Assembly (NCBI GenBank): GCA_000092065.1
Contig: CP000601.1
Reading direction: 5' to 3' (one strand)
DNA length: 64,000 nucleotides
Origin: Ostreococcus lucimarinus
Taxonomy: Eukaryota
Every line of letters starts with the position of its first letter. Position 1 is the stretch's first letter. Below the pieces are notes generated by a model, which was given only the letters and a program-made list of their open reading frames with translations, had not been told where the DNA came from and made no database searches. Below are positions 28,067 through 52,600 of this stretch, one piece after another. A program made the translations under genes and the position numbers.

Positions 28067-30365
28067 ATGACGCGCGGTGACGGCGCGCGCGACGGCGCGT
28101 CGACGCCGCGCGCCATCGGGCGCCTGCCGAGCGACGTCGTCAATCGCGTCGCCGCGGGAGAGGTGCGTCGAGGGCCGGCGCGCGACGGCGCGCGCGATGA
28201 GAGATTGAATGTTTGAACGTCAGCTCGACGACGGACGACGCGAACGCGCGACTGACGACGCGAGACGACGCGACGACCGAACGCGCGCGCAGGTGATCCA
28301 TCGACCGTCGAACGCGCTGAAAGAGCTGGTGGAGAACTCGTTGGACGCGGGCGCGAAGTCGATCGCGGTGACGACGAGGGAGGGCGGGAATAAACTGTTG
28401 CGAGTGCAAGACGACGGACACGGAGTGCGAATAGAGGACTTGCCGCTGCTGTGCGAGCGACACGCGACGAGTAAGATTGAAAAGTTTGAGGATTTAGCGC
28501 GATGCGAGAGCTTTGGGTTTCGAGGAGAGGCGCTGGCGAGCATGAGCTACGTGGCGCACGTGTCGGCGACGACGATGGCGGCGGGGGCGACGCACGCGAC
28601 TCGAGCGACGTATACGGATGGGAAGATGGATGCGGAGGGGGCGAAACCGATCGCGGGGGTGTTAGGAACTACGATTAGCGTGGAGAACTTGTTTTATAAC
28701 GTCGTGACTCGAAGGAAGGCGTTGAAGAGCGCGTCAGAGGAGTACTCGAAAGTGCTCGAGGTGTTGCAGAGGTACGCGGCGTTGCGAACGGATGTGGCGT
28801 TCACGTGTCGGAAGCACGGTGAGTCGCGAGCGACGTTGCACACTCCCGTGGCGCAATCGCGCGTCGAGCGGTTGCAGGCGATTTACGGTCCCACGGTGGC
28901 GAGAGATTTGAAGAAGCTCGACTTCGACAGCGAGCTGTCCAAGAAAAAGTTTGATTTCAAGCTGCAAGTGGACGGTTTAGTGAGCGGTGGGAATTATCAT
29001 TCAAAGAAGACGACGTTCATTTTGTTCATCAATTCGCGTTTAGTGGAGTGCGCGCCGCTCAAGCGCGCGTGTGAGTCGGTGTACGCGGCGATACTCCCCA
29101 AGGCTGAGAAGCCGTTTGTATTCATGCACCTCCGCCTGCCGTTTGAAGACGTCGACGTCAACGTGCATCCCACGAAACAGGAGGTGCACTTTCTGCACCA
29201 AGAAGCCATTGTGGAGTTGATTCAGTCCAAACTAGAGAAGATTCTTCTCGCGACGAATTCGTCGCGAACATTCACCGTGCAAACACTGCTTCCTGGCGCG
29301 GAGAAACTGGCAAAGAAGGATGACGAAAACGACGCCGAGCGAAGCGGCGACAAGGAAAATAGCGAAAAAGCGGACGAACCGCCGGCGTCGCAGGCGAAGA
29401 CGATGCGGACACAGCGCGAACGCGCGGGTGGTGATCACAAGCTCGTTCGCACGGATGCGAATTTAGCAGCGGGGAGTTTGGACGCGTACTTGCAGCGAGC
29501 GATGAATTCCGAGGGACGCGAACACGAGAAAATAGAAGAGGTTCGACGCGCGGTGAGAGAGCGTCGAGGACAGCGCACGGAACCCGAAGACACGTACGTG
29601 TGCGAGTTGACGTCTATTCGCCAGCTTAACACCGAAATCGCCAATCGCGCGCACAAGGAGCTCGGCGACGTGATTAAAAATCACACACTCGTCGGCGCCG
29701 TGGACGCGCGCAAAGGCGTGTGGTTACTTCAGCACCAAACCAAGCTCTTCATGGTGGACGCCGTAAAGCTCACCGAGGAAATGTTCCATCAAATGGCTTT
29801 GAAGAACTTCGCCAACTTTGGGTACCAATCGCTGCAAGATCCCGCGTCTTTGGCCGAACTCGCGCTGTGCGCGCTGGAGGATAAATTCGTCGACGACGAA
29901 GAGTGGGACGCGAGCGATGGCTCCAAGGAGGAAGTCGCAGAGAAAATCGCAGAGATGCTCGTCGAAAAGGCGGACATGCTCAAGGAGTATCTCGGCGTCG
30001 TCATCGACAAGGAACGGCGTCAGATCACCGGAGTGCCGTCGATGCTTCCCGGGTACGCGCCGGAAATCGGCAAACTTCCCGAGTTCGTCCTCGCCCTCGC
30101 CGAAGACGTCGATTGGACGAGTGAAAAAGAGTGCTTCGAAACCTGCGCTCGAGTCATCGGCGCATTTTTCGCCATGGACTGCTCTTTCCACGATCCGAAA
30201 GCCGAAGAAGGCGACGCCGAGTCCGACGCTCGTCGCGTCGCTCGCCTCTGCGTCTTTCCCGCGATGAAGCGCCGTCTCGCCCCGCCTCGTCGTTTCGCCG
30301 ACGACGGCACCGTCATTCAGATCGCGTGCCTCGAGCAGTTGTACAAAATTTTCGAGCGCTGTTAG
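28067..30365 (+). CDS. MLH1: DNA mismatch repair protein MLH1; two exons join(28067..28162,28293..30365)
   Basis: Exon 1 MTRGDGARDGASTPRAIGRLPSDVVNRVAAGE joins exon 2 VIHRPSNALKELVENSLDAGAKSIAVT, reconstituting the universal MutL motif AAGEVIxRPxNAxKELxEN. GHKL ATPase blocks DDGHGV and GFRGEAL follow. Full-length C-terminal MLH1 domain ends ...YKIFERC. Confidence 0.85.
28163..28292 (+). other. spliceosomal intron (130 nt) in MLH1
   Basis: GTGCGT donor. ACTGACG branch-like motif at 28251-28257. CGCGCAG acceptor. Removal restores the frame and the conserved MutL motif. Confidence 0.8.
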
Positions 30366-30717
30366 TCGGTCCGCGTCGTCGTCGTCGCCCTCGAACGGCG
30401 TCGGCGTTCCGAATCGTCTCGCGGCGCGTCGCCCGGTCGTAAAGCTTGAAATCGTGAACCAACCAGCCGTTCGATTCAACCGACGCGCGTCGACCGCGCG
30501 CGCCTCGGTCGTCACTCCCGCGCGCGCCACCGGCTCGACGGACGGACCGACGCGACCGACGCGACCGACGCGCGCGTTCGAATCGTGCATGCGCGCCGCG
30601 CGTCTCGTCGCCGCGCGCGTCGCCGCGAGAACGCCGACGTCATCGCGTCGCCTCGCCGCTCGAAAACTCAAAACGACGACCCGCGCGCGCGACGCCGCGA
30701 TCGCCGAGCGAGCGAGC

Positions 30718-32702
30718 ATGACGACGGGCGAACGCTCGAACGCGTCGAAGCTCGCGGCGGTGCGAGAGGCGATGGCGAAGCGAGGGGTGCGAGCGGTCGT
30801 CGTGCCGTCGCAGGATCCGCACTTTAGGCGCGTCGGCGAAGCGAAGGCGAACGAACGAAACGAGGAACGACGACGCGCGCGACGGGAAAGACTGACGAAC
30901 GGGCGAGGGCGTGTTTTTGTGGGGAACGCAGTGAGTACGTGGCGGCGTGCTTCGAGCGACGACGATGGTTGAGCGATTTTACGGGGTCGGCGGGGACGGT
31001 GGTGGTGACGGACGCGGCGGCGTTGTTGTGGACGGATGGACGGTATTTCGTGCAGGCTGAAGACGAGCTGAGCGAGGACTGGACTCTGATGCGAAGTGGG
31101 GTGAAGGATGTGCCGGACGTGAAGAAGTGGTTGTGCGCGGAGGAGGCGGGACTGGCGTTTACCGGAGCCAAGGTGGGCATCGATCCAAACGTGCACTCGG
31201 TGAGCGAGGCGCGAGGTTTGAGAGAAGCGTTGAGCGCGTGCGGGATCGAGTTGATGAGCGTCGAAGAGAACTTGGTAGATTTGGTTTGGAGCGATCGTCC
31301 ACCGTTCCCGAAGACGCCGCTCAGAGTGCACCCGATGGAGTACGCGGGGAAGAGCGTGGCGGAAAAATTGGAAAACCTTCGAGAAAAAATGAAGGAAAAC
31401 GACGCGCAGAAGCTCGTCGTGAGCTCGTTGGATGACGTCATGTGGCTATGCAATGTTCGAGGCGGTGATGCACCGTGTAATCCGGTGACGTTGTCTTACG
31501 TCTTGGTGGGTGAAAACGACGCTTCGTTTTACGTCGACACGGACAAGGCGACGCCTGAAGTCGTGGCGCATCTCGCCGAGGCAAACGTGACGATCAAGCC
31601 GTACGAAGACATGGCCAAAGACGTGTATGCCGCGGCACAGCGCGGTGAGCGACTCTGGATGGACGTCGATAAGGTCTCCATCGCCATGCTCGAACAGGCT
31701 GAAGCCGGAGCCGCCGAAGCGCCCAAGGATGCGAAAAAGGTGAAGACGGAGAGCGCGCCGTCCGCCATCAAGGAGGGCACGTGTCCGGTCCCGATCGCAA
31801 AGGCGGTGAAGAATGAGGCCGAGATGGCCGGTATGGTCGAAGCCCACCTCATGGATGGCGCTGCGATGGCTGAATTCTGGTGCGCGATCGAGCGAGACGT
31901 CGCCGAGGGGCGCGCCATTGACGAGTACGAAGCTGGCGAGAGGGTCTTGGCGTGCCGAGCCAAGCAAAACGGTTTCTTCGAAGAATCGTTCCCGACGATC
32001 GCGGGTGAAGGTCCTCATGGCGCCGTGGTGCACTACCGTGCTTCGAAAAAGAGCGCGAGGGCTATCGGTAAGGACAGCTTATTACTCTGCGACAGCGGCG
32101 GCCAGTACGCGTGTGGCACGACGGATGTCACTCGAACGGTGCACTTCGGAACGCCCACCGCTCATCAAAAGGAGTGCTACACGCGCGTGCTCCAAGGTCA
32201 CATCGCACTCGACCAAATGGTTTTCCCTGTCGGCACGAAAGGTTTCGTTCTCGACGCCTTTGCGCGATCGCACCTGTGGGCCAACGGCTTGGATTACCGT
32301 CACGGCACCGGCCACGGCGTCGGCGCGGCGCTCAACGTGCACGAAGGTCCGCAAGGAATCTCTCCGCGTTTTGGAAACATGACGCCCCTTATGCCAGGAA
32401 TGATCTTGAGCAACGAGCCGGGGTATTACGAAGACGGTGCGTTCGGTATCCGCATCGAGACGCTTCTGCAAGTGAAGGAGGCGAAGACTGCGCACAACTT
32501 CGGAGACACTGGATTTTTATGCTTTGACGTCTTGACGTTGATCCCGATTCAAACGAAACTCATGGACTTGAGCATTATGAGTGAAAAAGAAATCGCGTGG
32601 GTGAACGCGTATCACGAAAAAGTTTGGCAACAAATTTCCCCGCGAGTGTCGGGGGAGACTAAAACGTGGCTCGAACGCGCGTGTGCAAAGATTTCCAAGT
32701 AG
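30718..32702 (+). CDS. Xaa-Pro aminopeptidase P (M24B); two exons join(30718..30827,30932..32702), probable GC-AG intron
   Basis: Exon 1 MTTGERSNASKLAAVREAMAKRGVRAVVVPSQDPHF resembles the APP N-terminus (...YIVPSEDAHQSEY). Exon 2 (S)EYVAACFERRRWLSDFTGSAGT...WTDGRYFVQA continues it. C-terminal M24 motifs HGTGHGVGAALNVHEGPQ and the EPGYY block. Confidence 0.7.
30828..30931 (+). other. candidate GC-AG intron (104 nt) in aminopeptidase P
   Basis: GCGCGT at the 5' end is one T-to-C change from the GTGCGT used by the other introns. ACTGACG at 30891-30897. T-rich tract then AACGCAG acceptor. The splice gives the in-frame join ...DPHF|SEYVAAC. Confidence 0.5.
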
Positions 32703-32883
32703 GCGGCGTAGATTTACGTGTTTTAATTTGATGTTGAATTCGAGGTTGTTTTCGGCGAAAATTTGAATGCGTCTCTCGTTACAACTTTATTTTAGGATCA
32801 CATTCGTTCGTTGAACACAAAAGTATGGTACGACGTATTTTCTCACTGGGACTCTATACCGCTAAGATCAAGAAGCAAAGGCT

Positions 32884-34287
32884 TTAGATGGCCTTGTACT
32901 CAACCTTGGTGATCTTACCCAACATGACGGCGGTGTTACCGTCCAAGAAAGCGATGCGGGAAAGACCTTCGCACTTCTTGAAGGAGTCGACGACGAGCGG
33001 GTGGACCGGCTCGAAGACGCACTCGGCGACTTCGTTGGACTTCAACGACATCGGGGACTCGAGCTTCTTACCGCCGGTTTCCTTGCCAACCTTGAAGTTG
33101 AGCGCGGTCAACTTGCACGCGGAGCGGCCGCATCGGACGAAACCGATGGGGCTGTAGCCCGCCTTGAGTTCACCCGGAATGTCCAAGGTTTGGATTTGCG
33201 CGGTGAACTCCTTGCACGGGGCGAGGGAGGTGTCCTTCTTGTAGATCATCACGTCACCGGTGCGCGGCATGTTGAGCTTGTCGAGACCCTTGATGTTCAT
33301 ACCGACGTTGTCACCCGGCGCGGCGGCTTCGACGCGCTTGTGGTGCATTTCGACGGTGAACACCTTACCACCGCACGGGTTGGAGGAGGTGTGGGTCGGG
33401 AGGAAGACGACGTCTTCACCCGGCTTGACGAGACCTTGCTCGACGCGACCGGCGAGGACATCACCGACACCCTTGATCTTGTAGACACCGGAAATCGGAA
33501 GGCGCATGGCGGCTTCCGTGTTGCGGTCCGGCTTGTCGACCATGTCGTTGAGGACGTTGAGGAGGCAGTCGATGTGGAACTTCTTGCCGCCGCCCATGTA
33601 GTCTTCGACGTCGACGCCGTTCCACCACGGCATCTTCGCGGACTTGGACAACAAGTTGTCGCCGTTCCAGCCAGAGATCGGGAGGACCGGGACGCTCTTC
33701 TCGACGTAATCCTTCTTCCAGCCGACCTTGATCAACATGTTCTTCATTTCGTTGCGAATTTCTTCGTAACGCTCTTGCTTGTAGCCAGCCATGTCGCAAT
33801 CCATCTTGTTGATGCCGCAAATGAGCTGCTTGACGCCGAGCAAGTTGAGAAGACGCGCGTGCTGGCGCGTTTGGCCTTGGACTTCACCAGCCTTGTGGTT
33901 ACCCTTTTGGATGGCGACCGTGAAGTTACCGTCCGCCGGCACCATGAGAAGCGCCACATCGGCTTGCGCCGCGCCGGAAATCATGTTCTTGATGAAATCG
34001 CGGTGACCCGGGGCGTCGATGATGGTGTAGTGCCACTTGTCCGTGAAGAATTCCTTGGTCGTGCAAGAAATCGTCACACCACGCTCACGCTCTTCCTTTT
34101 GGCGATCCATGTAGAACGCGAACGCGAAAGAAGACTTACCGAGCGCATCGGCTTCGGCGCGAAGCTTTTCGAGTTCGCGCTCCGGGATACCCCCGAGCTC
34201 GAATAACAAGCGACCGGTCGTCGTCGACTTACCGGAATCGACGTGACCGCAGATCACGATGGAAAGATGTTCCTTGCCTTCAGACAT
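32884..34287 (-). CDS. EFL: EFL (elongation factor-like GTPase, the EF-1alpha paralogue/replacement)
   Basis: [42 protein letters not shown] and [25 protein letters not shown] are EFL-type rather than EF-1alpha-type (MGKEK..[24 protein letters not shown]). Intact 467-aa ORF. Confidence 0.9.
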   Translation of the reverse strand: [467 protein letters not shown]

Positions 34288-34901
34288 TGTGCGTTTATTT
34301 CAACTGTTTCGAGCCACGCGCGCATCGTCAGTCCCCCTTCCTCTCGTCTCGCCTCGTCCCGCGTCCAAACCTCCCGCCATCGCGCCGCCATCGGATCGCG
34401 ATCGTCAACCTCGCCCCCCCCCCTCGCTCGCGACCCTCGCGCGCGTCCCGCGCCGCCCGATCCATCGCGCGCGTATTCCTCCCGATCGTTTCCATCCGCG
34501 ACCGACGCCTCGCGCGTCGCATCGCGGCGTCACCGCGTCCGATCGTCGTCCGCGCGCCGTCCGCGATCGATCGTCGTCCGCGATCGATCGCGCGGCGCCC
34601 GCATCGCCTCGCCCTCGCGTCGTCGCGCGCCCTCGCGCGCGCGCCGCGACGCGCGCGAATATTTCCCACCGCCGCGTCCGTCGATCGCCGTCGCGCGCGC
34701 GTCGTTCGCCGCGCGCGGGCGCACCTTTGACCGTCGAAGAATGGCGCCGCCGCCGTCCTGGGGTCTTCGCGAGGATGCGTCGACGCGTGCGTTTCGTCGA
34801 CGGTTCATGACTCAAGAGTATGTGTCTTCGTATGGGTAAACAGTGTGAGTATCAGCAGAACGCCGCCCAGCCTCGACGGCCCGCGCGGCGGACGCCGCAG
34901 C

Positions 34902-35894
34902 ATGGCGCGCGCGCGCGCCGACGCGCGCGACGCGCGCGCGAGCGATTGGCGCGCGTTCGTCGCCGGCGTCGCGGGCGGCGCGTCGAGCACGCTCGCGCTG
35001 CACCCGCTCGACGTCGTGAAGACGCGGCTGCAGGTGCAGGACGACCCGGACGCGCGACGCGCGCGGTACGCGGGCGCGTGGCGAGGCGCGCGACGGATCG
35101 TCGCCGAGGAAGGCGCGCGCGGGATCTACGCGGGCGCCGCGCCGGCGATCGTCGGGAGCGCGGTGAGCTGGGGGGCGTATTTCGCGTGGTACGACGGCGC
35201 GCGGGCGCGGTACGCGGACGCGCTCGGACGAGAGCGAAACGGGGCGCTGCCGGCGGGCGCGAACATGATGGCGGCCACGGAGGCGGGGGTGGTGACGACG
35301 GTGCTGACGAACCCGATTTGGGTGGTGAAGACGCGGTTGCAGTTGCAGAGAGGAGGAGGATTAGGGGACGCGGCGAGCGAAGCGGCGAAGAGCGGCGAAA
35401 AGCGATACGCGGGATTCGTCGACGCGTTGGCGACGATCGCGCGAAAGGAAGGGTTGAGAGGGTTATACAAGGGACTCGTGCCGTCGATATGGCTCGTCTC
35501 GCACGGTTCGATACAGTTGACGGCGTACGAGTGGTTGAAGGAAATCGCGGCGAGCGGCAGAGCGAGACGCGCGCGAGGGGGCGCGGCGGACGTCGCCCCG
35601 GTCGAGGCTGGCGCCCTGGGCTTGGCGTCGAAATTCATCGCCGTGACCGCGACTTATCCAATTCAAGTCGTGCGCGCGCGCATTCAACAGCGCTCGGACG
35701 TCGGTAGACCCGCGGACGCCCCGACGTACGCGCGCTTCGGCGAAGCCGTCTCGCGCACCTTCGCTCGCGAGGGCGTTCGCGGCTTCTACAAGGGCTTCGC
35801 CCCCAACGTCGTTCGCGTGTTACCGAGTTCGGCCATCACGTTCGCCGCGTACGAGGGCGTTTTAGGCGTATTAAACGACGATCCCGTCGCGTAG
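34902..35894 (+). CDS. Mitochondrial carrier family protein (folate/FAD/NAD-transporter-like)
   Basis: Three tandem ~100-aa repeats each with P-x-D/E-x-x-K/R-x-R/K-like signatures (HPLDVVKTRLQVQ, NPIWVVKTRLQLQ, YPIQVVRARIQQ) and six TM helices. Confidence 0.75.
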   Translation: MARARADARDARASDWRAFVAGVAGGASSTLALHPLDVVKTRLQVQDDPDARRARYAGAWRGARRIVAEEGARGIYAGAAPAIVGSAVSWGAYFAWYDGARARYADALGRERNGALPAGANMMAATEAGVVTTVLTNPIWVVKTRLQLQRGGGLGDAASEAAKSGEKRYAGFVDALATIARKEGLRGLYKGLVPSIWLVSHGSIQLTAYEWLKEIAASGRARRARGGAADVAPVEAGALGLASKFIAVTATYPIQVVRARIQQRSDVGRPADAPTYARFGEAVSRTFAREGVRGFYKGFAPNVVRVLPSSAITFAAYEGVLGVLNDDPVA

Positions 35895-35920
35895 CGTAGC
35901 GTAGCGTAGCGTAGCGTAGC
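35891..35920. repeat. (GTAGC)6 microsatellite
   Basis: Perfect pentamer repeat overlapping the stop codon and 3' end of the carrier gene. Confidence 0.9.
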
Positions 35921-36003
35921 CGTTTGCAACGCGTCCTCGCGCGAGGGCGCCTCGAAACGACGATTGGCTTCGCCGACCGACGCCTCGCGCACTTCGCGAC
36001 GCG

Positions 36004-37260
36004 ATGTCGCGCGCGCCCGACGTCGCGAGCGAGCGACGCGACGCGTCGCGCGTGTCCATGCCGTTCGCGCCCGGCGCGATCCCGCGAAGCGAGAGCTACG
36101 ACGCGTTCGTCGCGTCGGTGCCCGACTCGCGCGCGTCGCCGGTGAAATCGCTCGCGCGCGCGCGCGATGCCTCCGCGAGCGCGACGACGGGCGACGACGA
36201 GCGACCGCGCGTGATGCTGCTCCACTGCGGCGGCACGCTCGGGATGGGGGTGGAGTCGTTCGAGCTGCGAGAGGCGGACGTCGTCCCGCGCGCGGGTGGC
36301 AAGTACAGACCGCTGGGGGCGTCGAAATATCTGTTGGACGTGCAGGAGGTGATACCCGAGCTGCGAGATTTCGCGCGGCTGGACGTGGAGGTGTTGATGA
36401 ATAAAGACTCGAGCGAGATGGACGGAAAGGATTGGGTGACGCTCGCGCGGGCGCTGCACGAGAGGAGGGAGGAGTACTCGGCGTTCGTCGTGGCGCACGG
36501 AACGGATACGATGGCGTACGCGGCGAGCGCGCTGTCGTTGATGCTGGTTGGGTTCGGAAAGCCGATCGTGTTGACGGGCTCGCAGTTGCCTCTGTCGTTC
36601 GCGCGATCGGACGCGCGCCAAAATTTGATTGACGCCCTGACGTGCTGTTGCGCGAGTCGAAGCTGCGGAGGTACCGTGGATTTCGCGGAGGTGGCGATTT
36701 GTTTCGGCGGTAAGCTTTTACGCGGGAATCGCGCGTCAAAGACGAGCGCGACGGTGTACGCGGCGTTTAGTTCACCTTCGTATCCAGCGCTCGCGAGATT
36801 AGGAGTGGGGGTCGATTGGAACCACGCGCGTTTGTTACGGCCGGCGCCAGAGTACGCGCCGCAATTTGAGTTGAATTCGAACGTCATACGCGTCCCGGTG
36901 ATTCCTGGCTTAGACATCGAAAAGGCGTACGGCGATTTGTACGGTCGAGGCGTGCGAGGCATCATCTTGGAAGCGTTCGGCGTGGGAAACTTCCCGCAGA
37001 GCCTCGTCCCTTGGCTCACCAGCCAAGCGTCGCGCGGATTGCAAATCTACCTATCGACGCAGTGTCAAAGCGGCGAATTACGACCGGAGCTCTACGCCGC
37101 CGGTCTCGGCGCGTTAGCCGTAGGGGCCAAATCTGGCCCGGTCATGACCAGCGAGTGCGCCGTGGTCAAAATGATGCTCCACATCGCGAATCCCGAGCTC
37201 GAGCTCCACGTATCGTACTCTGGCGAAGCCGGCGACGTCGATTTTTGCGACATCAAGTGA
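36004..37260 (+). CDS. L-asparaginase (type I / cytoplasmic-type)
   Basis: VMLLHCGGTLGM (active-site TGGT-like region). FVVAHGTDTMAYAASALSLML and PIVLTGSQLP are asparaginase family blocks. Start could alternatively be MPFAPG (about 36058). Confidence 0.7.
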   Translation: MSRAPDVASERRDASRVSMPFAPGAIPRSESYDAFVASVPDSRASPVKSLARARDASASATTGDDERPRVMLLHCGGTLGMGVESFELREADVVPRAGGKYRPLGASKYLLDVQEVIPELRDFARLDVEVLMNKDSSEMDGKDWVTLARALHERREEYSAFVVAHGTDTMAYAASALSLMLVGFGKPIVLTGSQLPLSFARSDARQNLIDALTCCCASRSCGGTVDFAEVAICFGGKLLRGNRASKTSATVYAAFSSPSYPALARLGVGVDWNHARLLRPAPEYAPQFELNSNVIRVPVIPGLDIEKAYGDLYGRGVRGIILEAFGVGNFPQSLVPWLTSQASRGLQIYLSTQCQSGELRPELYAAGLGALAVGAKSGPVMTSECAVVKMMLHIANPELELHVSYSGEAGDVDFCDIK

Positions 37261-37518
37261 CCGCTCGCGCCTCGTTCCACGCACTATCCAAACCTAAAAG
37301 TAGCCCTTTTAATTTTAGCCACCGCGCGCCGAATCGACCGACCGCGCCGGCGTCGGGGCCACGGTCAAAATCGCGAACCGCCGCTGGACTCGCGAATGGC
37401 GACTTTGGATGGATGACTTTGGTCGGCATCAGATCGCGACGCGTCCACGACGCACGCGCGCATCGATCTCCCTTTGGACGCGCACACGCGCGCGTGAACG
37501 TGATCCCACGCCGTCGCG

Positions 37519-39286
37519 ATGTCGCTCAAGTCCATCAACCCCAACGCCGAGCTCATGAACGCCGATGCCGCGCTGTTCATGAACATCAACGCCGCCAAGG
37601 GTCTCCAAGACGTGATGAAGACGAATTTAGGCCCGAAAGGGACGATCAAGATGCTCGTCGACGGTGCTGGAGGTGCGTGTACGATCGTTTCGTCGATACA
37701 TCGCGGTTTCGCGCGTCACGGCGGCGCGTGAGAGATGCGCGGTGACGGTGATCTGTTGGATTTCGCGCGAACGCGGCGCGGCGTTGACTCTGTTGACCGA
37801 ACGACTGACGGCGATGTTGAAATCGATGTGCGTAGGTTTGAAGCTCACGAAGGATGGGAACGTGCTGCTGAGAGAGATGCAGATTCAAAACCCGACGGCG
37901 ATCATGATCGCGAGGACGGCGGTGGCGCAGGATGATATCACCGGGGACGGGACGACGACGACGGTGCTCGTCATCGGAGAGTTGTTGAAGCAAGCGGAGC
38001 GGTATTTGAATGAGGGTTTGCATCCGAGAGTGATCGTGGAGGGATTCGATGTGGCGAAACGCGAGTCGCTGAAGTTTTTGGAAACGTTCAAGCGCGCGGC
38101 GCCGGGTGTGGAAGCGCCGGATCGAGAAATGTTGTTGTGCGTGGCGCGCACGGCGTTGCGAACAAAGTTGCGGGAAGAGTTGGCTGATAAGTTGACGACG
38201 ATCGTCGTCGACGCTGTGTTGTGCATCGCCAAACCGGAAGAGTCGATCGATTTGCACATGGTGGAGATCATGACCATGAAGCATCAGACGGATGACGAAA
38301 CCAAATTGATTCAGGGTTTGGTCCTCGACCACGGGGCGAGACATCCGGATATGAAGAGATACGTGGAGGACGCGTTCGTGTTGACGTGTAACATCAGCCT
38401 GGAATACGAACGATCGGAGGTGAACTCGACGTTCATGTACACCGATGCGGAACAGCGCGAGAAGATGGTCGCCGCCGAGCGCGCGTACACCGATGAAACC
38501 GTGCGCAAGGTGATCGCGCTCAAGAAGCAGGTGTGCGACGGCAACGACAAGGGTTTCGTCGTCATCACACAAAAGGGGATCGACCCAATCTCTCTGGACA
38601 TGCTCTGTAAGGAAGGCATTATGGGACTTCGTCGCGCCAAGCGCCGAAACATGGAGCGTCTCGTCCTCGCATGTGGTGGTCAATGCATCAACTCTGTTGA
38701 GGAACTCTCGCCGGAAATTTTGGGCCACGCCGGCGAAGTGTACGAGTACGTCTTGGGCGAGGAAAAGTACACTTTTGTGGAAAAAGTCGTCAACCCGACG
38801 TCGTGCACGGTACTTTTAAAAGGCTCGAACGATCACACCATCGCACAGCTCAAGGATGCGGTGCGAGATGGCTTGCGGGCGGTGAAGAATGTGTTGACCG
38901 ACAAGGCCGTGGTTCCGGGCGCGGGTGCGTTTGAGATGGCCTTGAACAAGCACTTGAAGGAGAACGTCACCAAGATGGTCGAAGGTCGCGCGAAACGCGG
39001 CGTCGAGGCGTTTGCGGAAGCCATGCTCGTGGTCCCGAAGACACTCGCGGAGAACAGCGGTTACGATCCGCAAGACGCCATCATCGACATGCAAGAGGAG
39101 CACGACAGAGGCAACGTCGTCGGTTTCGATATCAGCATCGGCGAGCCCTTCGACCCCACCATGAGTGGTATCTACGACAACTTTCTCGTCAAACAGCAAA
39201 TTCTGCACTCTGCGCCCATCATCGCCACGCAGTTACTCTGCACGGATGAGGTTCTCAGAGCGGGCGTGAACATGCGCAAGCGATGA
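37519..39286 (+). CDS. CCT6: T-complex protein 1 subunit zeta (CCT6); join(37519..37672,37836..39286)
   Basis: Exon 1 [51 protein letters not shown]. Exon 2 (G)[50 protein letters not shown]. This is the CCT-zeta N-terminus including the GDGTT ATP-binding motif; a full-length chaperonin follows. Confidence 0.85.
37673..37835 (+). other. spliceosomal intron (163 nt) in CCT6
   Basis: GTGCGT donor. ACTGACG at 37804-37810. TGTGCGTAG acceptor. Phase-1 splice restores the CCT6 N-terminal alignment. Confidence 0.8.
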
Positions 39287-39380
39287 TCGACGCGAGTCAG
39301 AAACTTATAGAATTTAGTGGTGGTGCGTACGCACGTACGTAGTAGCAGCGTGTGTGAATCTACAAGGAAAGAATTGCTAA

Positions 39381-42610: not shown

Positions 42611-42658
42611 TTAAAATCGACAACAAATTGTAGGAGACGCGGCGAAGATAATCAGCCA

Positions 42659-43651: not shown

Positions 43652-43860
43652 GGCGCTTCGTTGGACGACGTCGACGACGGTCGGGCGCGATCGCGCGCGC
43701 GACGCGACGTCGCGGCGGAGTGACGACTTTATCCACTTCGCTCGGGACACTTTTCGGCGCGACTCCGAGGCGCGACGCGCACGTCGCGACGCGCCGACGC
43801 GCTTCGACCGGTCGCGCGCGCGCGGACGAGCGACGATAGACGCGGGCGATCGTCGAGACG

Positions 43861-44505
43861 ATGCCGGCGCCGACGCGACCGCCGACGCGACACCACCACT
43901 TCGAGACTGGGACGTACAAACCGAGCGGGCTGTTCCTGCCGGACGACGAGTACGGACGCGCTTTGGACGCGCTGGTGAAGGGCTGCGTCGATTGCTTGCT
44001 GACGAACGAAAAGGGAGAGGTTTTGCTCGGGCTGCGCAAGCACGAACCGGCGAAAGGGACGTGGTGGTACATCGGTGGACGGATGCGCACGGGGGAGACG
44101 GTGGAGGAGACGGCGAGACGGCACGCGAAGCGAGACATCGGGATCGAGATCGACACGGAGCGGTTTCGATTCGTGACCACGAGCACGATGAATTGGGAAT
44201 TTCGAGTGCAGGAGCCGGCGGGGAACGGGACGTGCGATATTAACGTGGTCCTCGCGGCGACGCTGACGGAGGAGGAAATCGCGCGCAAGACGATGTGCGC
44301 CGACGAATATTTAGATCAAAAATTTTGGTCCGTGGAGGACATCTTAGCCGTGACGGACGAAAAAGTGATTTTACCGCCGATTCACATCTCTGCAAAGAAA
44401 ATGGTGTGGTCTGAACGCGAGGATGCGATGTACGCGGCGGTGGCTCGCGGCGCGGACGACGCGGAAATCGCCCGACTCGCGCGCCGCGCGTACGAGTTCG
44501 CGTGA
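43861..44505 (+). CDS. Nudix hydrolase
   Basis: Nudix box GGRMRTGETVEETARRHAKRDIGIEI (GX5EX7REUXEEXGU pattern). Confidence 0.6.
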   Translation: MPAPTRPPTRHHHFETGTYKPSGLFLPDDEYGRALDALVKGCVDCLLTNEKGEVLLGLRKHEPAKGTWWYIGGRMRTGETVEETARRHAKRDIGIEIDTERFRFVTTSTMNWEFRVQEPAGNGTCDINVVLAATLTEEEIARKTMCADEYLDQKFWSVEDILAVTDEKVILPPIHISAKKMVWSEREDAMYAAVARGADDAEIARLARRAYEFA

Positions 44506-44726
44506 AGCGTTCGACGTGGCGGACGCGGGCTTTCGCGAAGCCATAGTTAGACGCAATTGTTTTAATGATTGATGCGCAAATGTTTTCGTGTTGTTACACT
44601 AACTGACTAAGTAAGAAGTCTTCGATCATCGTCGTGAAAATTGGCGCGGCGGAGCGCACATCGTTAGCGCTGCCCATCCTTGCTTGAAAAAATGTTGTTT
44701 GTTTATCTTTGTCCGATATCGTTCGA

Positions 44727-45383
44727 TTAGAACAGCGCGGAGCCGCCCATGATCTTTTCGACGATCGGCAACGCGACGAGACCGATCATCGCACCGCGAC
44801 CGTTCGTCATCTCCGCCTCCGCGCGGAACGGCCCGAACGCCTCGGGCGCCTCGTCCAAGCCGTTCGGCGACGACTTCTTGAGCGCCGGCGCCAAAGAGGA
44901 CGCCAAGGTCAAGATCACGCAGGCCGGCACGAGGAAGAACCCGGCCGCCGGGTACGTGGACGTGCGCGTGATGCCGTCCGCGAGCGTGAACGTGCGTTCG
45001 TTGAACAATTGGTGCATGAAGCTCGTGTTCGACGTCAGCTCCACGTAGAGCGCCGCCGTCCACCCAATCATCGCCGCGCGACCGTTGATCGTCTCCACCG
45101 CGCGCGAGTCCTTGAACGCGAGCATGACGGAGTCGAGCATGGAGTTATCGTTCCCGAGCGGCGCCGCTTCGGCGATGGAGCCGTCGGCCGGGTCGATCGC
45201 GTCGACGCGCATCGTCGGCTGCTTGGACGCCGCGTCGGCATCCTTCCACTCGGAGTTCGCCTCTTCGACCGCCTTGGAGACGTCGTTTTCGGCGCGGACC
45301 GCGACGGAGGCGCGGCGGTGCGCGCGCTGCGTCTTGACGACGGCGCGGGCGGCGAGTTGGGGGCGAGTCGTGACGGCGAACAT
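44727..45383 (-). CDS. ELIP/LHC-like chlorophyll a/b-binding family protein (three helices, helices I and III carry the LHC motif)
   Basis: ETINGRAAMIGWTAAL and EMTNGRGAMIGLVALPI (ExxNGRxAMxG motifs) separated by a hydrophobic helix AAGFFLVPACVILTLASSL. Basic transit-peptide-like N-terminus from MFAVTTRPQL. Confidence 0.7.
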   Translation of the reverse strand: MFAVTTRPQLAARAVVKTQRAHRRASVAVRAENDVSKAVEEANSEWKDADAASKQPTMRVDAIDPADGSIAEAAPLGNDNSMLDSVMLAFKDSRAVETINGRAAMIGWTAALYVELTSNTSFMHQLFNERTFTLADGITRTSTYPAAGFFLVPACVILTLASSLAPALKKSSPNGLDEAPEAFGPFRAEAEMTNGRGAMIGLVALPIVEKIMGGSALF

Positions 45384-45766
45384 GTCGTGCGTGCGTGTGC
45401 GAGAGTGACGCGATGCGGCGCGCCGTCGACGGTGACGTCGAATTTTGTCATTTTCGCGCGTCACTGTTTACGCATACGAGCGGTCGGTCGCGCGACACGA
45501 ATCGTCGACGTCGACGGTTCGCGCGTGACGTCACGCGACCGCGCGACGAAACGCGCGGTCGCCGCGGTCGACGCGGTCGACGCGCGCGCGGTCGGAGGCG
45601 AGGCGTCGGCGTCGGCGTCGCGCGCGACGCGCGAAGCCCGCGGGGCGCGCGGCGAAGGGCGCGGCGAGACGCGACGGTGCGCGCGACGACGCGATGGACG
45701 CTTTATGACTTTATGGGTCCTCGGGACGAGGGGGCGAATGTTACAAGTTTGAGCGATGCGCGCGAT

Positions 45767-47947
45767 TCATCGCCCGTCGCAGACGTCCGCGACGTCGTCC
45801 GGTCGTCCGACGATGACGTCTTCGCGGTCGATGGTGACCATGCCGAGCCTGGCGCCCTTGGGCTTTTTCACGTACTTAGGAGACGTGTACGAAACGTTGA
45901 CTTTGCCGCCCGTTCTCACTTTCGAATGAAAGCTCGCGACGTTGGCGGCGAATTGGATGTCGTCGTCTGAGGCGGTTTCGCCTGGTTGTTGGCGAAGGAT
46001 GACGTGCGCGCCCGGGGCGCCGCGAACGTGAAACCACACGTCTTGGTCTTGTCCGAAGAAAAGCGAAACCGCTTCGTTTCCGCGGCTATTTCTTCCGCAG
46101 TACACCTCCTTTCCACTCGGCGCGGTATAGATGCGAATGGCGTTCATCATCTCTTGCTTACGCGCTTGCTTACCGGTTTTCGGCTTCGCGCCGCCGCCCT
46201 TCTTCGCCGCCGCCATCGCGCGCGTCTTCGCGTCGGCGCCCTTGCCCGTGGGCTTTAAGAATCCACCGTCCACGAGTTCGGCGCCAATTTCCTCGATGAA
46301 CAATAAATCGTCGCGCGATTTGAACTCGCTGACTTCGAGAATACTAAATTCGACGCCCTCTAAATACTCAATCTCGCTCGCATTTTGTTCGATGAGCGGC
46401 TCGACGGCGTCGGCGGTGCGACGCAGCTTTCTCGTCTTTTTGTACAGCGCCTCGGCGGTGCCCACAGGACCTTTCTCGGGATCTACTTTAAACATCACTG
46501 TCTCGCCCGTGGTGAAGTCTTGACCCTCAAGCTCGCTCGAACCAGGCTTATAGTTGTAACTGTACGCCATCAACGCGTCGGCGAGCAGTTGAATTTCTTC
46601 GTGCCCGCTCGCCGCCTCTAATTGCTTGCGGAACCCAACGTCTTTGCTCGCCAACTTTTTCAGACGCGCGCGCACGGCTTGTAAAATGCGCGAGCGTTCG
46701 CGCTCGAACACGTCGGTTTCGCCCGCTTCGCCGTACACAGCGCCGAAAAGAGCGCCGATCGGCCCGCCGGCAACGCTCAAATCGTCGGCGGCGGGCGGCA
46801 AGACGACGCCCGCGGACGACGGGTGCAATAACAACTGCCCGAACTCTTCGCACCACGTGGCGTTTGCGAGCGTACCCGCACTGTCGGCATCACTTGAAAC
46901 GCTCGCAATCCATCGCATGAACTCATCGTACACGGCGACCCAATCGCTCGCACTCGCGGTTTCGACGCGCTCGCCATCGGCGACGCCCGCGCCGCGAATC
47001 AACGCCTTGGCCAAAGCCGGTGACACCCCTCGAAACGCGCGCACCATGCACTCATCCAAACGCGCTTCGCCCATATCACCACTGCGACCGCGTGCGACGT
47101 CGCGCAACACCGCGGTCCATCCGTCCACGCCCCCTTCAACCCCGGTCGTGGGATCGATCCCGGGCGCCGAGGGCGGCGGCTCGTACGCGTACCCGATCGC
47201 CAATCGCCGCACACTCGTCTGTTTCTCCCCAACCTGATACCCACACGCTAAAACTTCATCATTATTTTTACTATCAAGCAAGAACGCGTTGCTGTACCGC
47301 CCCATGACCTCACACAACAGCTCGTACTCTGCCTCACCTCCCGGCCTATCGCCGAATCGCAACCGACACGCGCGTTCCCACGCCGTCCCCACGCGCGCAT
47401 CCAGCAGCACCTTCCCCTTGAGCAGCGCGTTCGCGCTCTCGCCAAAACTAAGATTCATCCCCTTCTCCACCTTGGCCCCGCGCGCGCTCATCGCGACGTG
47501 CGCGGTCACCGGGTGCCAACTCACTCGCACGCTCCGCCGTCCATCCGCCGCGCGCGCGTCCAGCGTCATCGAGTGCGCGTCCACCTGCGCGCACGCGTCG
47601 ATCTTCACCGGCGTCGACAGCGCGTTTATCTCCCGCACGCTCGCGACGAGGGCGGTGTAATCGAACGTCGCGGGCGTCGCGCGCGCGGCGCGAACGACGA
47701 CGAGCGAGCGGCGGTGACGCGGCGACGGCGCGCGCCGCGGCGACGCGAGCGACGCGATGCGCCAACGCGCGCGCGCGGGGATGCGTGACGCGCGGTACAT
47801 GACGCCGAGCGCGGGCGCGGGCGGGCCGCGGGCGCGCCGCGGGCGGACGCGCGCGAGGGAAAGTGAGGACGCGGCGCGAGCGGGACGCGAAGCGTCTCGG
47901 CGAAAGGTTCGGCGCGCGAATGAATATCTGGCGATGAGCGTTGACAC
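45767..47947 (-). CDS. NFACT/FbpA-DUF814 family protein (bacterial-type RqcH/NEMF homologue), with transit-peptide-like N-terminus
   Basis: C-terminal NFACT-R block DVWFHVRGAPGAHVILRQQ...NVASFHSKVRTGGKVNVSYTSPKYVKKPKGARLGMV. N-terminal NFACT-N-like region. Arg/Ser-rich presequence. Confidence 0.65.
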   Translation of the reverse strand: MSTLIARYSFARRTFRRDASRPARAASSLSLARVRPRRARGPPAPALGVMYRASRIPARARWRIASLASPRRAPSPRHRRSLVVVRAARATPATFDYTALVASVREINALSTPVKIDACAQVDAHSMTLDARAADGRRSVRVSWHPVTAHVAMSARGAKVEKGMNLSFGESANALLKGKVLLDARVGTAWERACRLRFGDRPGGEAEYELLCEVMGRYSNAFLLDSKNNDEVLACGYQVGEKQTSVRRLAIGYAYEPPPSAPGIDPTTGVEGGVDGWTAVLRDVARGRSGDMGEARLDECMVRAFRGVSPALAKALIRGAGVADGERVETASASDWVAVYDEFMRWIASVSSDADSAGTLANATWCEEFGQLLLHPSSAGVVLPPAADDLSVAGGPIGALFGAVYGEAGETDVFERERSRILQAVRARLKKLASKDVGFRKQLEAASGHEEIQLLADALMAYSYNYKPGSSELEGQDFTTGETVMFKVDPEKGPVGTAEALYKKTRKLRRTADAVEPLIEQNASEIEYLEGVEFSILEVSEFKSRDDLLFIEEIGAELVDGGFLKPTGKGADAKTRAMAAAKKGGGAKPKTGKQARKQEMMNAIRIYTAPSGKEVYCGRNSRGNEAVSLFFGQDQDVWFHVRGAPGAHVILRQQPGETASDDDIQFAANVASFHSKVRTGGKVNVSYTSPKYVKKPKGARLGMVTIDREDVIVGRPDDVADVCDGR

Positions 47948-47977
47948 GCGCGCGCGTTCGTTCGGTCGGTCGTTTGT

Positions 47978-49108
47978 CTAGGATGTCTTGGCCGATTTCG
48001 GGGTGACTTCCTCGGCGCGCGTCTCGCGAAGGAAGACGCGGTCTTCGGGCTTGTTGTTCTCTCGCTCTTCGTGCGCGTACGAAGACGCGATGGCGAGCAA
48101 GGACCCACAAGGACTGAAAGCGAGCGCTGAGATGGAGGTGGGGTAGCGGGGCGACTGAAAAAGTCGCTTTTTAGCGTCGCCATCCCAAAAATTGACGTAA
48201 CCGTCGCCGCCGCCCGTGGCGAATGTGCCGTGGACGGGATGAAACGCCACCGCGTGGACGGGATAAACAATCTCACCCACGCTCGCGTCATCGGTTTTGC
48301 GATGACACTTGAACGCATATTTTCGCTTGTCGTTCTCTTCATCGCGTATGAACTCCACCGCTACGCGTCCCTCGACGCTCGCGGCCACGAATCCATCGCC
48401 TCGGATATTTGCTGCGATGGCGCGCGTTTGAAACCGCATGCTCGAACGTCTATTTATCAACGGACGCGGCGGCGCTTCCGACGCGCGTCGTCCGTCATCA
48501 CCATCCACACCGCGCACTAAATCTCGCGTCTCGTACGCCAAAACTTGCCCATCGCTCGTCGCCACGAAAATCTTACCGTCTCTCAAATCCGCCGCGTAGC
48601 ACTTCCCAGCCGTCTTCGTCGTCGACACCGCGCGCCCTCGCTCGTCCTTCGTCAAATCCCACGCCCTAATCGTTCGATCCCAGCCAAACGTAAACAATTT
48701 CTTCGTCGCATCATCGTACTCCACCGCCGACACCGCGCCGTCGTCGTGCGCGCCGACGACGCGAAACGCGCCAGTTTTAAAATCGACGAGGCGCACCGAC
48801 CCGTCGAGGCATCCCACGCACGCCGCGTCCTCATCCGTCCCGACGAACGTCCCGCACAGCGCGGGCGCGCCCAAATCGATCGAGTTCAACGATTTCACGT
48901 CCCCGATCTCGCGCGCGCGGCACGCGTACCGCCGCGCGGTCCCGTCCCAGGACGTCACCAGGAGCGTCAACCGTCGCGCCATCCCATCGTCGTCGTCGTC
49001 GCGACCCTCTCCCGCGCTGACCGCGCAGAACCGCACCGCGCTGACGCCGTCGCCGAACGCCGCGCCTCCGGCCCCTCGCACGTCGCGACCGAGGTCTCGA
49101 TGCGCCAT
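47978..49108 (-). CDS. BUB3: BUB3 (or closely related RAE1) WD40 mitotic checkpoint protein
   Basis: YAFKCHRKTDD...EIVYPVHAVAFHPVHGTFATGGGDGYVNFWDGDAKKRLFQSPRYPTSISALAFSPCGSLLAIASSY is the diagnostic BUB3/RAE1 C-terminal block. N-terminal ...LVTSWDGTARRY. Confidence 0.7.
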   Translation of the reverse strand: MAHRDLGRDVRGAGGAAFGDGVSAVRFCAVSAGEGRDDDDDGMARRLTLLVTSWDGTARRYACRAREIGDVKSLNSIDLGAPALCGTFVGTDEDAACVGCLDGSVRLVDFKTGAFRVVGAHDDGAVSAVEYDDATKKLFTFGWDRTIRAWDLTKDERGRAVSTTKTAGKCYAADLRDGKIFVATSDGQVLAYETRDLVRGVDGDDGRRASEAPPRPLINRRSSMRFQTRAIAANIRGDGFVAASVEGRVAVEFIRDEENDKRKYAFKCHRKTDDASVGEIVYPVHAVAFHPVHGTFATGGGDGYVNFWDGDAKKRLFQSPRYPTSISALAFSPCGSLLAIASSYAHEERENNKPEDRVFLRETRAEEVTPKSAKTS

Positions 49109-49650
49109 CGCGCGCGCGCGTCTCGCGCGCGCACCGCGCGCGCGTCCCGACCGTCACCGCGACGACGTCGTCGTCGCCCGCGCGCGCATCGGTTTATCGC
49201 CGATCGACGACGGTCAAACGCGCGTTCGGGCGCCGTCTCGATCCATGTGCGATCGCGATGACGCGCGCATAAATAATCATCGCCGCGACCGAACGCGCAT
49301 TGCGACGCGCGCGAACGCCGTGTCGTGCGAGCGCGTCTCGCGCGGGCGTCGCGCGCGCACCGCATTTCGCGACGGCGGTCGATGCGGGCCCCGTCGCGCG
49401 CGCCGTGCGCGTCCGCGCGCCCGGAGGCCGGCGTCGTCGACGCCCTCGATGATCTCGCCGCCGTCGACGCCCGCGCGTGCGGCATCGGCAAGCTCACGAT
49501 CGCGCACGACGACGACGACGACGACGCGCGAGGTCTCCGCCATCGCGACCGCGGCGCGTTCGCCCTCGATTTGCGCGCGTGGTCGTTCACCGCGCGCACG
49601 CAGCCGGTCCGCGCGCTCGGGGCGTGCGCGCGAGACGCGTCCGTCGACAT

Positions 49651-52600
49651 GCGCGTGCCGTTCAGGGACGAATACGAGCGACACAGGGCGTCGCGACCGG
49701 ACGAACGCGCGCCGCGAGGGGCGAGTTGGCGCATCCATCGAGTGCGAGGATGGCGCTTCGACCTGCGCGCGCTGTACGAGGAGGTGAAAAGACGCGGTGG
49801 CGCGGACGCGATCGATGGAAATCAAGGCTGGCGCGAGGTCGCGGAGGCGATCGGGGCGCACGGACGCGGATGCGCGGCGGGACACGCGGCGAGAGCGCTG
49901 CACGGGGCGTGGCTGGAGGCGTTCGCGCGCGACGCCAAGCGAAGAGAAGACGCGGTGAAGAGCGCGCAGTTCGACGCGGTGAAGGGAGAGATCGAACAAG
50001 ATGACGCGCTGGCGATCGATGCGCTGTGTGGGCTCGAATTTGGGGCGTCGGGCGCGCCCGAACGGCGAGTCAAGGTGGAAAATGTGCGTAATTCGTGCCA
50101 TATCTTCTTCGCGCGGGACCGGGATGACGGCGAATCGCACGCGTTCGCGGCGCGTGCGACGCGCGCGCGCGATGATGGGCGTCGCGATGACGTGCGACTG
50201 ACTTTTACGGCGCGTGTTTTCGCGACGCAGGGCCTCGATCTCGTCGCCTCGCAGCTCGCGGACGCGCCCGAGGGCGACGCCGACTGCGACGTGTGCGGCG
50301 CGAGCGGGAACGAAGACGCGATGATCCTGTGCGATGGGTGCGATCGAGGGTGCGTATACGACAATGCCACGCGAGAACGCGCGCGTGAAAATTATCTCGA
50401 TCGTTCGGACGCGCGTTCGGGGAGAGAGAGCGCTCGCGCGGCGCGCGAGGGCGCGGCGAACGCGCGCGTGGGCGACGGTTAGACGTGGGGTTTAGAGGCG
50501 CGCGGGGGAGAAGGAGCCGCGAAGGAGCGACGAGACTGACGAATGATGCGCGCGTAGGTCACATATGTACTGCTTAACGCCGAAGATGACTGAAGTGCCG
50601 AGTGGAGAGTGGTTTTGTGGACGATGCGAAGAGATTGACGCGGAGGTGGAGCGATTGAGCGCGGATGAAGGGACGCAGTTTACGCTCGGCGATTTCAACG
50701 AGGCGTGCATAGAATTTGATACGGCGTTCTTTGGCGAGGACGCCAAGCGAACTGGGATCGATATGCAGGTGATTGAGGAGTGTTTCTGGCGAATGGTTGA
50801 AGATGCGAGCTCGGTGGATGATGTTTGCGAGGTCAAATGCGGCACGGCGATTGACACGACAAAGTACGGAAGCGGGTTCCCGAGACACGGCGAAGCGCTT
50901 CAGGTAAAGATTGACGGCGTGAGCCCGGAATCTATCAAGCGCTGGTCAGAGTCGAAATGGAATCTCAACAACGTCGCGCGCGCGAGTGGGGAAAAGTCGT
51001 CGCTACTGGGCGCGTTGAAGGATGACGTGGCGGGCGTGACGACGCCATTCTTAGAAGTCGGAAGCACGTTTAGTTCCACGACTTGGCGTCGAGAAGAGCA
51101 TAACATGTACAGTATCACTTACAATCACTGGGGTGCCGCGAAACTGTGGTACTGCGTGCCGGCGAGTGCAGCGGACAAGTTGGAAGAATGCTTCCAGAAG
51201 GTGATGCCCGACGTCTACGAGGCGCACGTCAACGATTTGGGAAGCGTCTTTACGATGCTCTCGCCGAGCTTCTTGATGAGCGCGGGAGTGCCCGTGCACA
51301 CGTTGGAGCAATTCCCAGGAGAATACGTGGTGACGTATCCCGGGGCGTACTACGCGTCGTTCAACTGTGGATTGAACTGCACGGAGAGCGTCAACTTTGT
51401 GCCCGCTGACTGGCTCCCAGAGGGCTCGGCGAGCGTGGAGAGAAACCGATCGTACGCCAAGCGTTCATTGTTTAGTCACGACGAGTTGGTTTGCAGAGTA
51501 GCAAACAATCCTAGTTCGAGCATAGCGCCGCACTTGTGGCCCGAGATTGCGCGCTTGTACGCTGAAGAGGCAAACGGTCGCGCCGAGCTTTTCGCGTCTG
51601 GCGTGACGCGCAGCGCGCAAATGACGTCAGCAGACGACGACGACGACGACGATGGCTGCGAAAAGCCTCGTAAAGTACGATCTAGGTTTGACGATGCATC
51701 GAACTCTGGATCCGATGAGTGCGTTGTTTGTCGACACATTTTGTACTCGTCTGGCGTCGGGTGCTCGTGCGACGAGACGCGCAAGGCGTGCTTGCGACAC
51801 GTCAACGACTTGTGCAAATGTGCGATGTCGAAGAAGACGATGTTTTACAGAGAAACAGTGGCTGATTTAGAAAGTCTGGTGAAGAAGACGGAGAAGGCGC
51901 TTTCTCAGAAGGAACTAGCCAGCTTAAAATCCAAGCACAGCGACTTGGACTCAGTCACAGTGAACAAGAATCTCGTCAAGAAGGCTCAGGCTTGGGTGAA
52001 ACGAGTGGGCGAAGAGCTCGTCAAACCACCTTTGCCGCCGCTGGACAAGATGAGAAATTTACTCGCTGCGGGTGAAGAGTTTATTTGGGGTGGTGCTGAT
52101 ATGAAGGCGGCTCGAGAAGCGTACACTCGCGTGACGAACGCCGTCGCGTGGCAGACGAGTCTTGTGGCGCTGAAGCAAAGGCTTGGATCCAGTGCTGGTG
52201 CCGAGGCCGCGCACGATGACGCTGGTGAAGCGCGATTGAGATTGAACAGACTAAAAGAGCTCCTTGACAACCCACCGGTACCGATGCCTAAGGCTGATAC
52301 TCAACCTTTCCGCGATTTGCTCGCGGCGGGCTTGAAATTGGAGGAACGCATCAAGGCGGCTCTCGCCGAGGTACCGAATCCATCTCCTCGCGCTTGTACG
52401 ACGCTTCAAACTGAAGCGAATAAGTTTGGTGTGGAAGTCCCTTCATATAAAAAGCTGAAGGACGTCATCGTTAGAGCAGGCGCGTGGTCCACGAAGGTGC
52501 GCGGCGCGCTTCCAGGACGACGACAACTCCCGCCGCGCGAGGAACTAGCGAATGCTCGAGAGATCGAGGCGTTATACGAAGAGGCGCATGGATTACCCGT

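Follow-up and report, generated by a model that had tools for sequence, protein, structure and literature searches.

Five introns interrupt four genes (MLH1, an aminopeptidase P gene, CCT6 and the KDM5/JARID1 gene) in a 64,000-nucleotide (nt) stretch of nuclear DNA of Ostreococcus lucimarinus CCE9901 (contig CP000601.1), hereafter the window, and all five are almost certainly ordinary U2-type spliceosomal introns of the canonical class of this species. Four of them had been proposed in a preliminary description of the window because their removal restores conserved protein motifs, and all four stand at the coordinates given there (Table 1). Protein identity with NCBI models for three of them, a spliced CCT6 mRNA, ungapped protein junctions and a restored PHD finger support their status as real introns with a putative yeast-like branch site. 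The fifth, KDM5 intron A, was absent from that list and was found by scanning the window with the shared intron grammar.

Table 1. Exons, introns and candidate introns in the window. A slash marks a splice boundary; positions are those of the window.
Feature	Coordinates	Strand	Length (nt)	Phase	Donor	Branch box (position)	Acceptor	Remarks
MLH1 exon 1	28067..28162	+						32 codons; translation ends ...AAGE
MLH1 intron	28163..28292	+	130	0	GAG/GTGCGTC	CGACTGACGA (28249-28258)	GCGCAG/GTG	
MLH1 exon 2	28293..30365	+						
Aminopeptidase P exon 1	30718..30827	+						ends ...SQDPHF + AG
Aminopeptidase P intron	30828..30931	+	104	2	TAG/GCGCGTC	AGACTGACGA (30889-30898)	ACGCAG/TGA	GC-AG
Aminopeptidase P exon 2	30932..32702	+						
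CCT6 (TCP-1 zeta) exon 1	37519..37672	+						
CCT6 intron	37673..37835	+	163	1	GAG/GTGCGTG	CGACTGACGG (37802-37811)	GCGTAG/GTT	
CCT6 exon 2	37836..39286	+						
KDM5/JARID1 exon 1	49382..50083	+						start Met, ARID domain (Pfam)
KDM5 intron A	50084..50230	+	147	0	AAT/GTGCGTA	CGACTGACTT (50195-50204)	ACGCAG/GGC	
KDM5 exon 2	50231..50349	+						first half of PHD1
KDM5 intron B (PHD1)	50350..50557	+	208	2	AGG/GTGCGTA	AGACTGACGA (50533-50542)	GCGTAG/GTC	
KDM5 exon 3	50558..54224	+						up to strain-specific TAG; open reading frame reaches 56087 in other genotypes
EFL (EF-1alpha-like) candidate 5′UTR intron	34304..34724	-	421		AAAG/GTGCGCC (34724)	GGACTGACGA (34334-34325)	AACAG (ends 34304)	
RRM-protein gene candidate 5′UTR intron	13964..14159	-	196 or 270		uncertain: GTGCGCG (14159; 196 nt) or GCGCGTC (14233; 270 nt)	AGACTGACGA (14004-13995)	CGCAG (ends 13964)	

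A shared grammar of splice signals

The boundaries of the five introns restore both the reading frame and the conserved protein, with GT-AG termini in four and GC-AG termini in one. The donor reads GTGCGT in four of the five and GCGCGT in the other, which fits the consensus GTGCGTG; the preliminary description, which had assigned GTGCGT to all four of its introns, was right for MLH1, CCT6 and KDM5-PHD1 but not for aminopeptidase P. ACTGAC, extended to GACTGAC, is present in all five, and the complete box GACTGACG in four. On the + strand of the window, ACTGACG occurs at 28251, 30891, 37804 and 50535 only, exactly where it had been placed. Its first base precedes that of the following exon by 42, 41, 32 and 23 nt in MLH1, aminopeptidase P, CCT6 and KDM5-PHD1, so that the earlier range of 24-43 nt was off by one. 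In the same order, the predicted branch A is 37, 36, 27 and 18 nt away from the 3′ splice site (18-37 nt over the five introns), the acceptors are CAG, CAG, TAG and TAG, and every ACTGAC copy in a verified intron is followed, 18-37 nt on, by a YAG that restores the frame. Unspliced, four of the five introns would bring stops or frame shifts into the coding sequence.

The placement of the box is far from random: among the 12 ACTGAC copies found over 128,000 strand-positions, 5 fall within the 752 nt of independently verified intron, where 0.07 would be expected (Poisson P ~1e-8). We treated several further copies as chance occurrences rather than intron signals. Those at 17439(-) and 42162(-) are antisense to acyltransferase and amidohydrolase coding sequence; that at 1604(-) lies 63 nt beyond the stop codon of a ZIP gene whose Pfam domain is complete; that at 44602(+) sits between convergent genes; and that at 61478(-) has an AG merely 11 nt off.

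Donor and branch site are recognised in the spliceosome by U1, U6 and U2 small nuclear RNAs (snRNAs). In the window introns, the rigid donor G[T/C]GCG[T/C] would be read by U1 and then by U6 snRNA, and the near-invariant (G)ACTGAC(G), the putative branch point, would pair with the branch-recognition sequence of U2 snRNA with its second A bulged. The acceptor would then be the first YAG 18-37 nt 3′ of the branch box, chosen without a polypyrimidine tract. The stretch between branch box and acceptor has no such tract in any of the five verified introns: its pyrimidine fraction is 0.34-0.60, and its T fraction is 0.00 in the MLH1 tail.

U12-type introns have the donor /[AG]TATCCTT and the branch sequence TCCTTAAC about 10-15 nt from the acceptor; the window introns, with donors G[TC]GCGT and ACTGAC branch boxes, do not belong to that class. 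Nor do they belong to the small introns of the chromosome-2/BOC1 region in Mamiellophyceae, which are 40-65 nt long and low in GC, with a weak GTRNGT donor and no discernible branch motif (PMC2367439, PMC2483917, PMC3879977), as the verified window introns are 104-208 nt long, have a GC content of 0.60-0.69 and carry strong signals.

A gene map of the window built from per-position GC, Pfam domains and open reading frames (ORFs) contains about 35 recognisable genes, and introns interrupt the coding sequence of four of them, in line with the earlier statement that most genes are intronless. Three of the four introns first described lie near the 5′ end of the coding sequence, as had been noted, at 96-154 nt into it. 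In a very compact, intron-poor genome such as this one, the small number of introns that survive have strong, near-invariant signals and are clustered towards gene 5′ ends.

Protein and transcript evidence at MLH1 and CCT6

Joining MLH1 position 28162 to 28293 gives ...VAAGE/VIHRP... and a 722-amino-acid product identical letter for letter to XP_001421130.1, and the region around the junction aligns without a gap to human MLH1 (4p7a). The spliced CCT6 product is likewise letter-identical to XP_001421126.1. For CCT6 the transcript itself is available: L005, a contig assembled by Logan from run SRR847308, consists of window positions 37308-37672 followed by 37836-39365, with 1895 of 1895 bases identical. 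Because the 163-nt segment is gone from this contig and the exons are identical, L005 is an assembled spliced CCT6 mRNA of the same strain, and the CCT6 intron is removed from mRNA.

A GC-AG intron in aminopeptidase P

Joining aminopeptidase P position 30827 to 30932 gives ...SQDPHF/SEYVAAC..., which aligns ungapped with human XPNPEP1 (3ctz) and with C. elegans APP-1. The junction peptide PSQDPHFSEYV is unchanged in three proteins that are 59-61% identical to ours (P0046, P0047 and P0049), and the GC donor is kept in the lineages that are 99.5% and 93% identical. An alternative GT donor at 30832 yields a stop codon, and no nearby GT opens the frame. Judged from these sequence comparisons, the ungapped junction, the conserved peptide, the unchanged GC donor and the lack of a usable GT together indicate that this segment is a genuine GC-AG intron. 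A query with the 299 N-terminal amino acids returned no Ostreococcus protein and none above 59% identity.

In P0046, P0047 and P0049 (about 60% identical), the ORF runs uninterrupted across the site of the aminopeptidase P intron. If these entries come from genomic contigs, which their ENA source suggests, the intron is absent from that lineage.

Two introns in KDM5

Joining KDM5 position 50349 to 50558 removes intron B and completes a PHD finger (PF00628, 48.4 bits, profile positions 1-47 of 47) that is missing from either unspliced KDM5 ORF, and the resulting model matches XP_001421122.1 letter for letter across the PHD1 junction. In other Ostreococcus lineages, orthologues of intron B lie at the same position and measure 219, 465 and 339 nt, with GT[GA]CGT, ACTGAC and YAG kept.

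Intron A is in frame and stop-free, so the restoration of protein motifs could not have exposed it. Since the strict signal pattern is expected about twice in the window by chance, we checked intron A in KDM5 orthologues collected by protein search and locus look-ups. The window and L025 both have 147 nt between the flanking exons, with donors GTGCGT and GTGCGC, respectively, and the box ACTGAC, and both would be read through in frame if unspliced. In L026 the intron measures 176 nt (GTACGA, ACTGAC), a length not divisible by three, and would have to be spliced out there to avoid a frame shift; in L028/L029 it measures 162 nt (GTACGT, ACTAAC) and contains an in-frame stop. The flanking exons (RVKVEN/GLD...) are conserved across lineages and the interior is not. 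On this comparative evidence, KDM5 intron A appears to be a real intron whose open frame in this strain is a coincidence. A KDM5 model lacking intron A found no match in the protein collection.

The open frame also invites the reading that intron A is an exitron whose optional retention yields two KDM5 isoforms in this species. In the window and L025 alike, the segment is open and 147 nt long; it falls in the linker between ARID and PHD1, and the public KDM5 model keeps it. We nonetheless consider this unlikely, because both frame and openness are lost in L026 and L028, the amino acids encoded by the 49 codons are hardly conserved between the window and L025, unlike those of the flanking exons, and the codon register of the ACTGAC box differs between these two species. 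By our own estimate, moreover, an open 49-codon stretch of a length divisible by three is a chance event of about 10% at 65% GC. We therefore continue to treat intron A as an ordinary intron.

The preliminary description had suggested an unrecognised N-terminal exon in KDM5. The start Met at 49382 is conserved in a species at 75% protein identity, where MRAPSRAP of the window aligns with MRGPARAP at the opening of the ORF P0167; no additional 5′ exon is therefore needed. At the other end of the gene, an in-frame TAG at 54222-54224 (+) cuts the KDM5 frame, and a complete PHD finger and the PLU-1 region continue in the same frame beyond it (54225-56087). Six environmental genotypes have CAG (Gln) instead of TAG and a single KDM5 ORF of 1841 amino acids, and NCBI splits the gene in two (XP_001421122.1 and XP_001421121.1). 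As the independent Logan assembly SRR1179203 carries the same TAG, it seems to be a genuine nonsense change specific to the strain and not a read error.

Introns diverge rapidly while their signals stay

Marine metagenome contigs carry versions of the region that are near-identical to the window (99.5-99.9%) or diverged from it (97.8% and 93%). In L008, which represents the 93% lineage, the introns of MLH1, aminopeptidase P and CCT6 are 66%, 83% and 91% identical to those of the window, against 97-98% for exons (97% for CCT6 exon 2). The intron indels of L008 are not multiples of three, and donor, GACTGACG and YAG are kept; its MLH1 intron has the donor GTGCGC together with an intact GACTGACG and CAG. 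Three species-level relatives have both KDM5 introns at the same positions, with lengths of 147-465 nt, unrelated interiors, donors of the form GT[GA]CG[TCA], and ACT[GA]AC 22-31 nt from YAG. The introns thus diverge fast while the splice signals stay.

Alternative readings of the interrupted segments

Several observations weigh against assigning the five segments to the canonical introns. Counted on both strands, ACTGACG occurs 9 times against 10.9 +/- 3.3 in shuffled sequence, and the strict pattern GTGCGT..ACTGAC..YAG matches 4 sites against a shuffle expectation of 1.9 +/- 1.5, so neither is enriched over the window as a whole; the GACTGACG/ACTGACG copies at 17439(-) and 42162(-) lie opposite coding sequence. 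Direct transcript support among the five introns comes from CCT6 alone. The aminopeptidase P exon junction and the predicted 5′ untranslated region (5′UTR) junction of the EFL gene each had 0 matches in metagenome contigs, a collection that may hold no transcripts, and the spliced aminopeptidase P model of 626 amino acids found no match in the protein collection. Finally, XP_001421122.1 translates the in-frame, stop-free KDM5 intron A as 49 residues, and its retention in this strain would not be visibly harmful.

Taken to their conclusion, the missing window-wide enrichment and the open, publicly translated intron A would make the segments retained sequence, that is, translated inserts, assembly frameshifts or signs of pseudogenes, with the coincidence of motifs due to chance. 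We regard this as scarcely credible. Stops or frame shifts affect all but one of the segments, the CCT6 mRNA is perfectly spliced, independent assemblies and lineages show identical boundaries, intron A brings a frame shift in L026 and a stop in L028, and the placement of the boxes is too concentrated within the introns for chance.

A second possibility is that the introns stem from a mobile introner-like family, as in Micromonas, and share their signals for that reason. The preliminary description had named such families as a point to check, and the IE-C introners of Micromonas RCC299 bear the same GACTGACG box (PMC3879977). We compared the cores of seven sequences within the window, with the signal boxes removed. 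A few pairs exceed a single-base-shuffle null. Against random GC-rich pieces of the window, most pairs stand at a fraction of 0.05-0.77 of the null, short (CG)n or GACG runs being the exceptions, so that intron cores are no closer to one another than to such pieces. BLAST of each intron against the window gave low-complexity matches of at most 30 nt, and the lengths are unlike (104-421 nt). Extended similarity of the kind that marks introner elements was not found among the seven sequences. Orthologous introns occupy the same sites in species whose proteins are 25% diverged, with unrelated interiors, which points to old, unique introns rather than recent copies. Introners are repeated and mutually similar, whereas the window introns are unique, and a shared mobile origin is accordingly very improbable. 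Embedded RNAs as a reason for the retention of introns over time were also considered; an Rfam search at a permissive threshold of the EFL upstream region and the KDM5 introns returned nothing credible.

Candidate 5′UTR introns and proposed 5′ exons

With the window introns read as canonical spliceosomal introns, their grammar can be turned on gene models, as the preliminary description had proposed. It recovered KDM5 intron A and candidate 5′UTR introns of the EFL and RRM-protein genes, but not the missing 5′ coding exons that had been anticipated.

The candidate acceptor of EFL ends 16 nt upstream of the ATG. In the 93% lineage, the branch site, the acceptor and a block of about 50 nt immediately before the donor are all conserved; the interior of the candidate intron has 84% identity there, and the coding sequence 99.7%. 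The diverged EFL paralogue L003 has GACTGACG and TAG immediately before its ATG. These features suggest that the EFL 5′UTR contains an intron and that it is spliced. Within it, a poly-G run at 34420-34435 (-) varies between genotypes (10-12 G, interrupted in L004). The EFL ORF (32884-34287, -) is letter-identical to a protein of O. lucimarinus CCE9901 at NCBI, where EFL has at least three protein accessions, and the gene is present in at least two copies on the same chromosome of about 530 kb, with identical protein and different neighbours (loci L007, L009, L012, L014 and L015).

In the RRM-protein gene, CGCAG follows AGACTGACGA by 34 nt and ends 30 nt before ATGATG at 13933. Both the RRM domains and the widely called product of 669 amino acids begin at 13933, with an Arg-rich extension of the ORF upstream of it. 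The upstream element looks like a 5′UTR intron; the 5′ coding exon that had been proposed for this gene is not borne out. For the CS-domain gene, which had been credited with an unrecognised 5′ exon as well, we found neither a branch nor a donor signal upstream of the ATG. The Sfi1 gene was not located, as no window ORF gave a Pfam match or a regular Trp repeat for it. The Arg-rich ORF extensions that had prompted these proposals are translated CG-rich, stop-poor untranslated or intergenic DNA.

The evidence is evenly balanced on whether introns of the same grammar are more widely unannotated, in 5′UTRs (both paralogues of the highly expressed EFL gene, and the RRM gene) and perhaps in annotated coding stretches that happen to be in frame and stop-free, like KDM5 intron A. 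If they are, the published intron census of O. lucimarinus, with its reported link to high expression, counts too few introns, which could be put right by a grammar scan together with RNA-seq.

Relation to described introns

The intron grammar described here is correct but already known. In a section on 'The peculiar case of Ostreococcus', Irimia & Roy 2008 (PLoS Genet 4:e1000148; PMC2483917) analysed non-chromosome-2 introns confirmed by expressed sequence tags (ESTs). Of these O. lucimarinus introns, 87.2% have ACTGAC and 66.5% GACTGACG, and the same set has an atypical 5′ splice-site consensus, GTGCGTG, at 4.8 bits (PMC2483917). Coming from the same organism, with the same donor GTGCGTG and box ACTGAC/GACTGACG, strong signals and low density, the window introns differ from that set in nothing substantial; the window adds one GC-AG intron (GCGCGT), and sister lineages show GTGCGC, GTACGT and ACTAAC variants.

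The excess of introns near 5′ ends is equally textbook. Rogozin et al. 2012 (PMC3488318) describe it for intron-poor unicellular eukaryotes, where the usual explanation is loss from the 3′ side mediated by reverse transcripts. Lanier et al. 2008 report that introns are present in 16-20% of the transcripts of O. lucimarinus and that highly expressed genes are over-represented among them.

Canonical Micromonas introns have AG/GTGCGT and NCTGAC (Verhelst et al. 2013; GBE 5:2393; PMC3879977), and the same paper cites GACTGACG as the branch box of Ostreococcus. AG/GTGCGT and NCTGAC, together with few or no introns outside low-GC outlier regions, are thus common to Micromonas and other Mamiellophyceae and to the window, although the branch motif of Micromonas is reported to lie 43-52 base pairs upstream of the acceptor and the predicted branch A of the window introns lies 18-37 nt from it.

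Hemiascomycete yeasts (GTATGT ... TACTAAC ... YAG) resemble the window in being intron-poor with near-invariant donor and branch boxes, and in having 5′-proximal introns behind short first exons and 5′UTR introns, candidates in the case of the window, in highly expressed genes. One sister Ostreococcus lineage even uses the yeast-like ACTAAC. Unlike yeast, the window has the donor GTGCGT, the box ACTGAC and a GC-rich context. As Irimia & Roy 2008 argued, the likeness to yeast is convergence and not common ancestry of the signals.

What is new concerns annotation: aminopeptidase P has a GC-AG intron, KDM5 has an intron that is missing from its annotation and is itself split into two gene models, and two genes have candidate 5′UTR introns. 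The introns of MLH1, CCT6 and KDM5-PHD1 are already in public gene models, and the importance of the set lies mostly in corrections to such models. The GC-AG first intron restores the true N-terminus of aminopeptidase P, 49 annotated KDM5 residues are intron, the two-gene annotation of KDM5 stems from a strain-specific nonsense codon, and two 5′UTR introns are likely. With about two false matches per 64 kb by chance, a motif scan needs homology, comparative or transcript support before it is trusted.

Other features of the window

An Rfam tRNA match of 49 bits at 6872-6985 (-) extends over 114 nt where the model has 71 positions, and so suggests a tRNA gene that contains an intron; ARAGORN called no tRNA in the window. 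The first 10 kb (1-10000) hold an ORF of 1043 codons (7161-10292) without a Pfam match. The window is GC-rich and dense with eukaryotic genes, with a GC content of 0.48-0.56 in the first 10 kb and 0.57-0.70 elsewhere.

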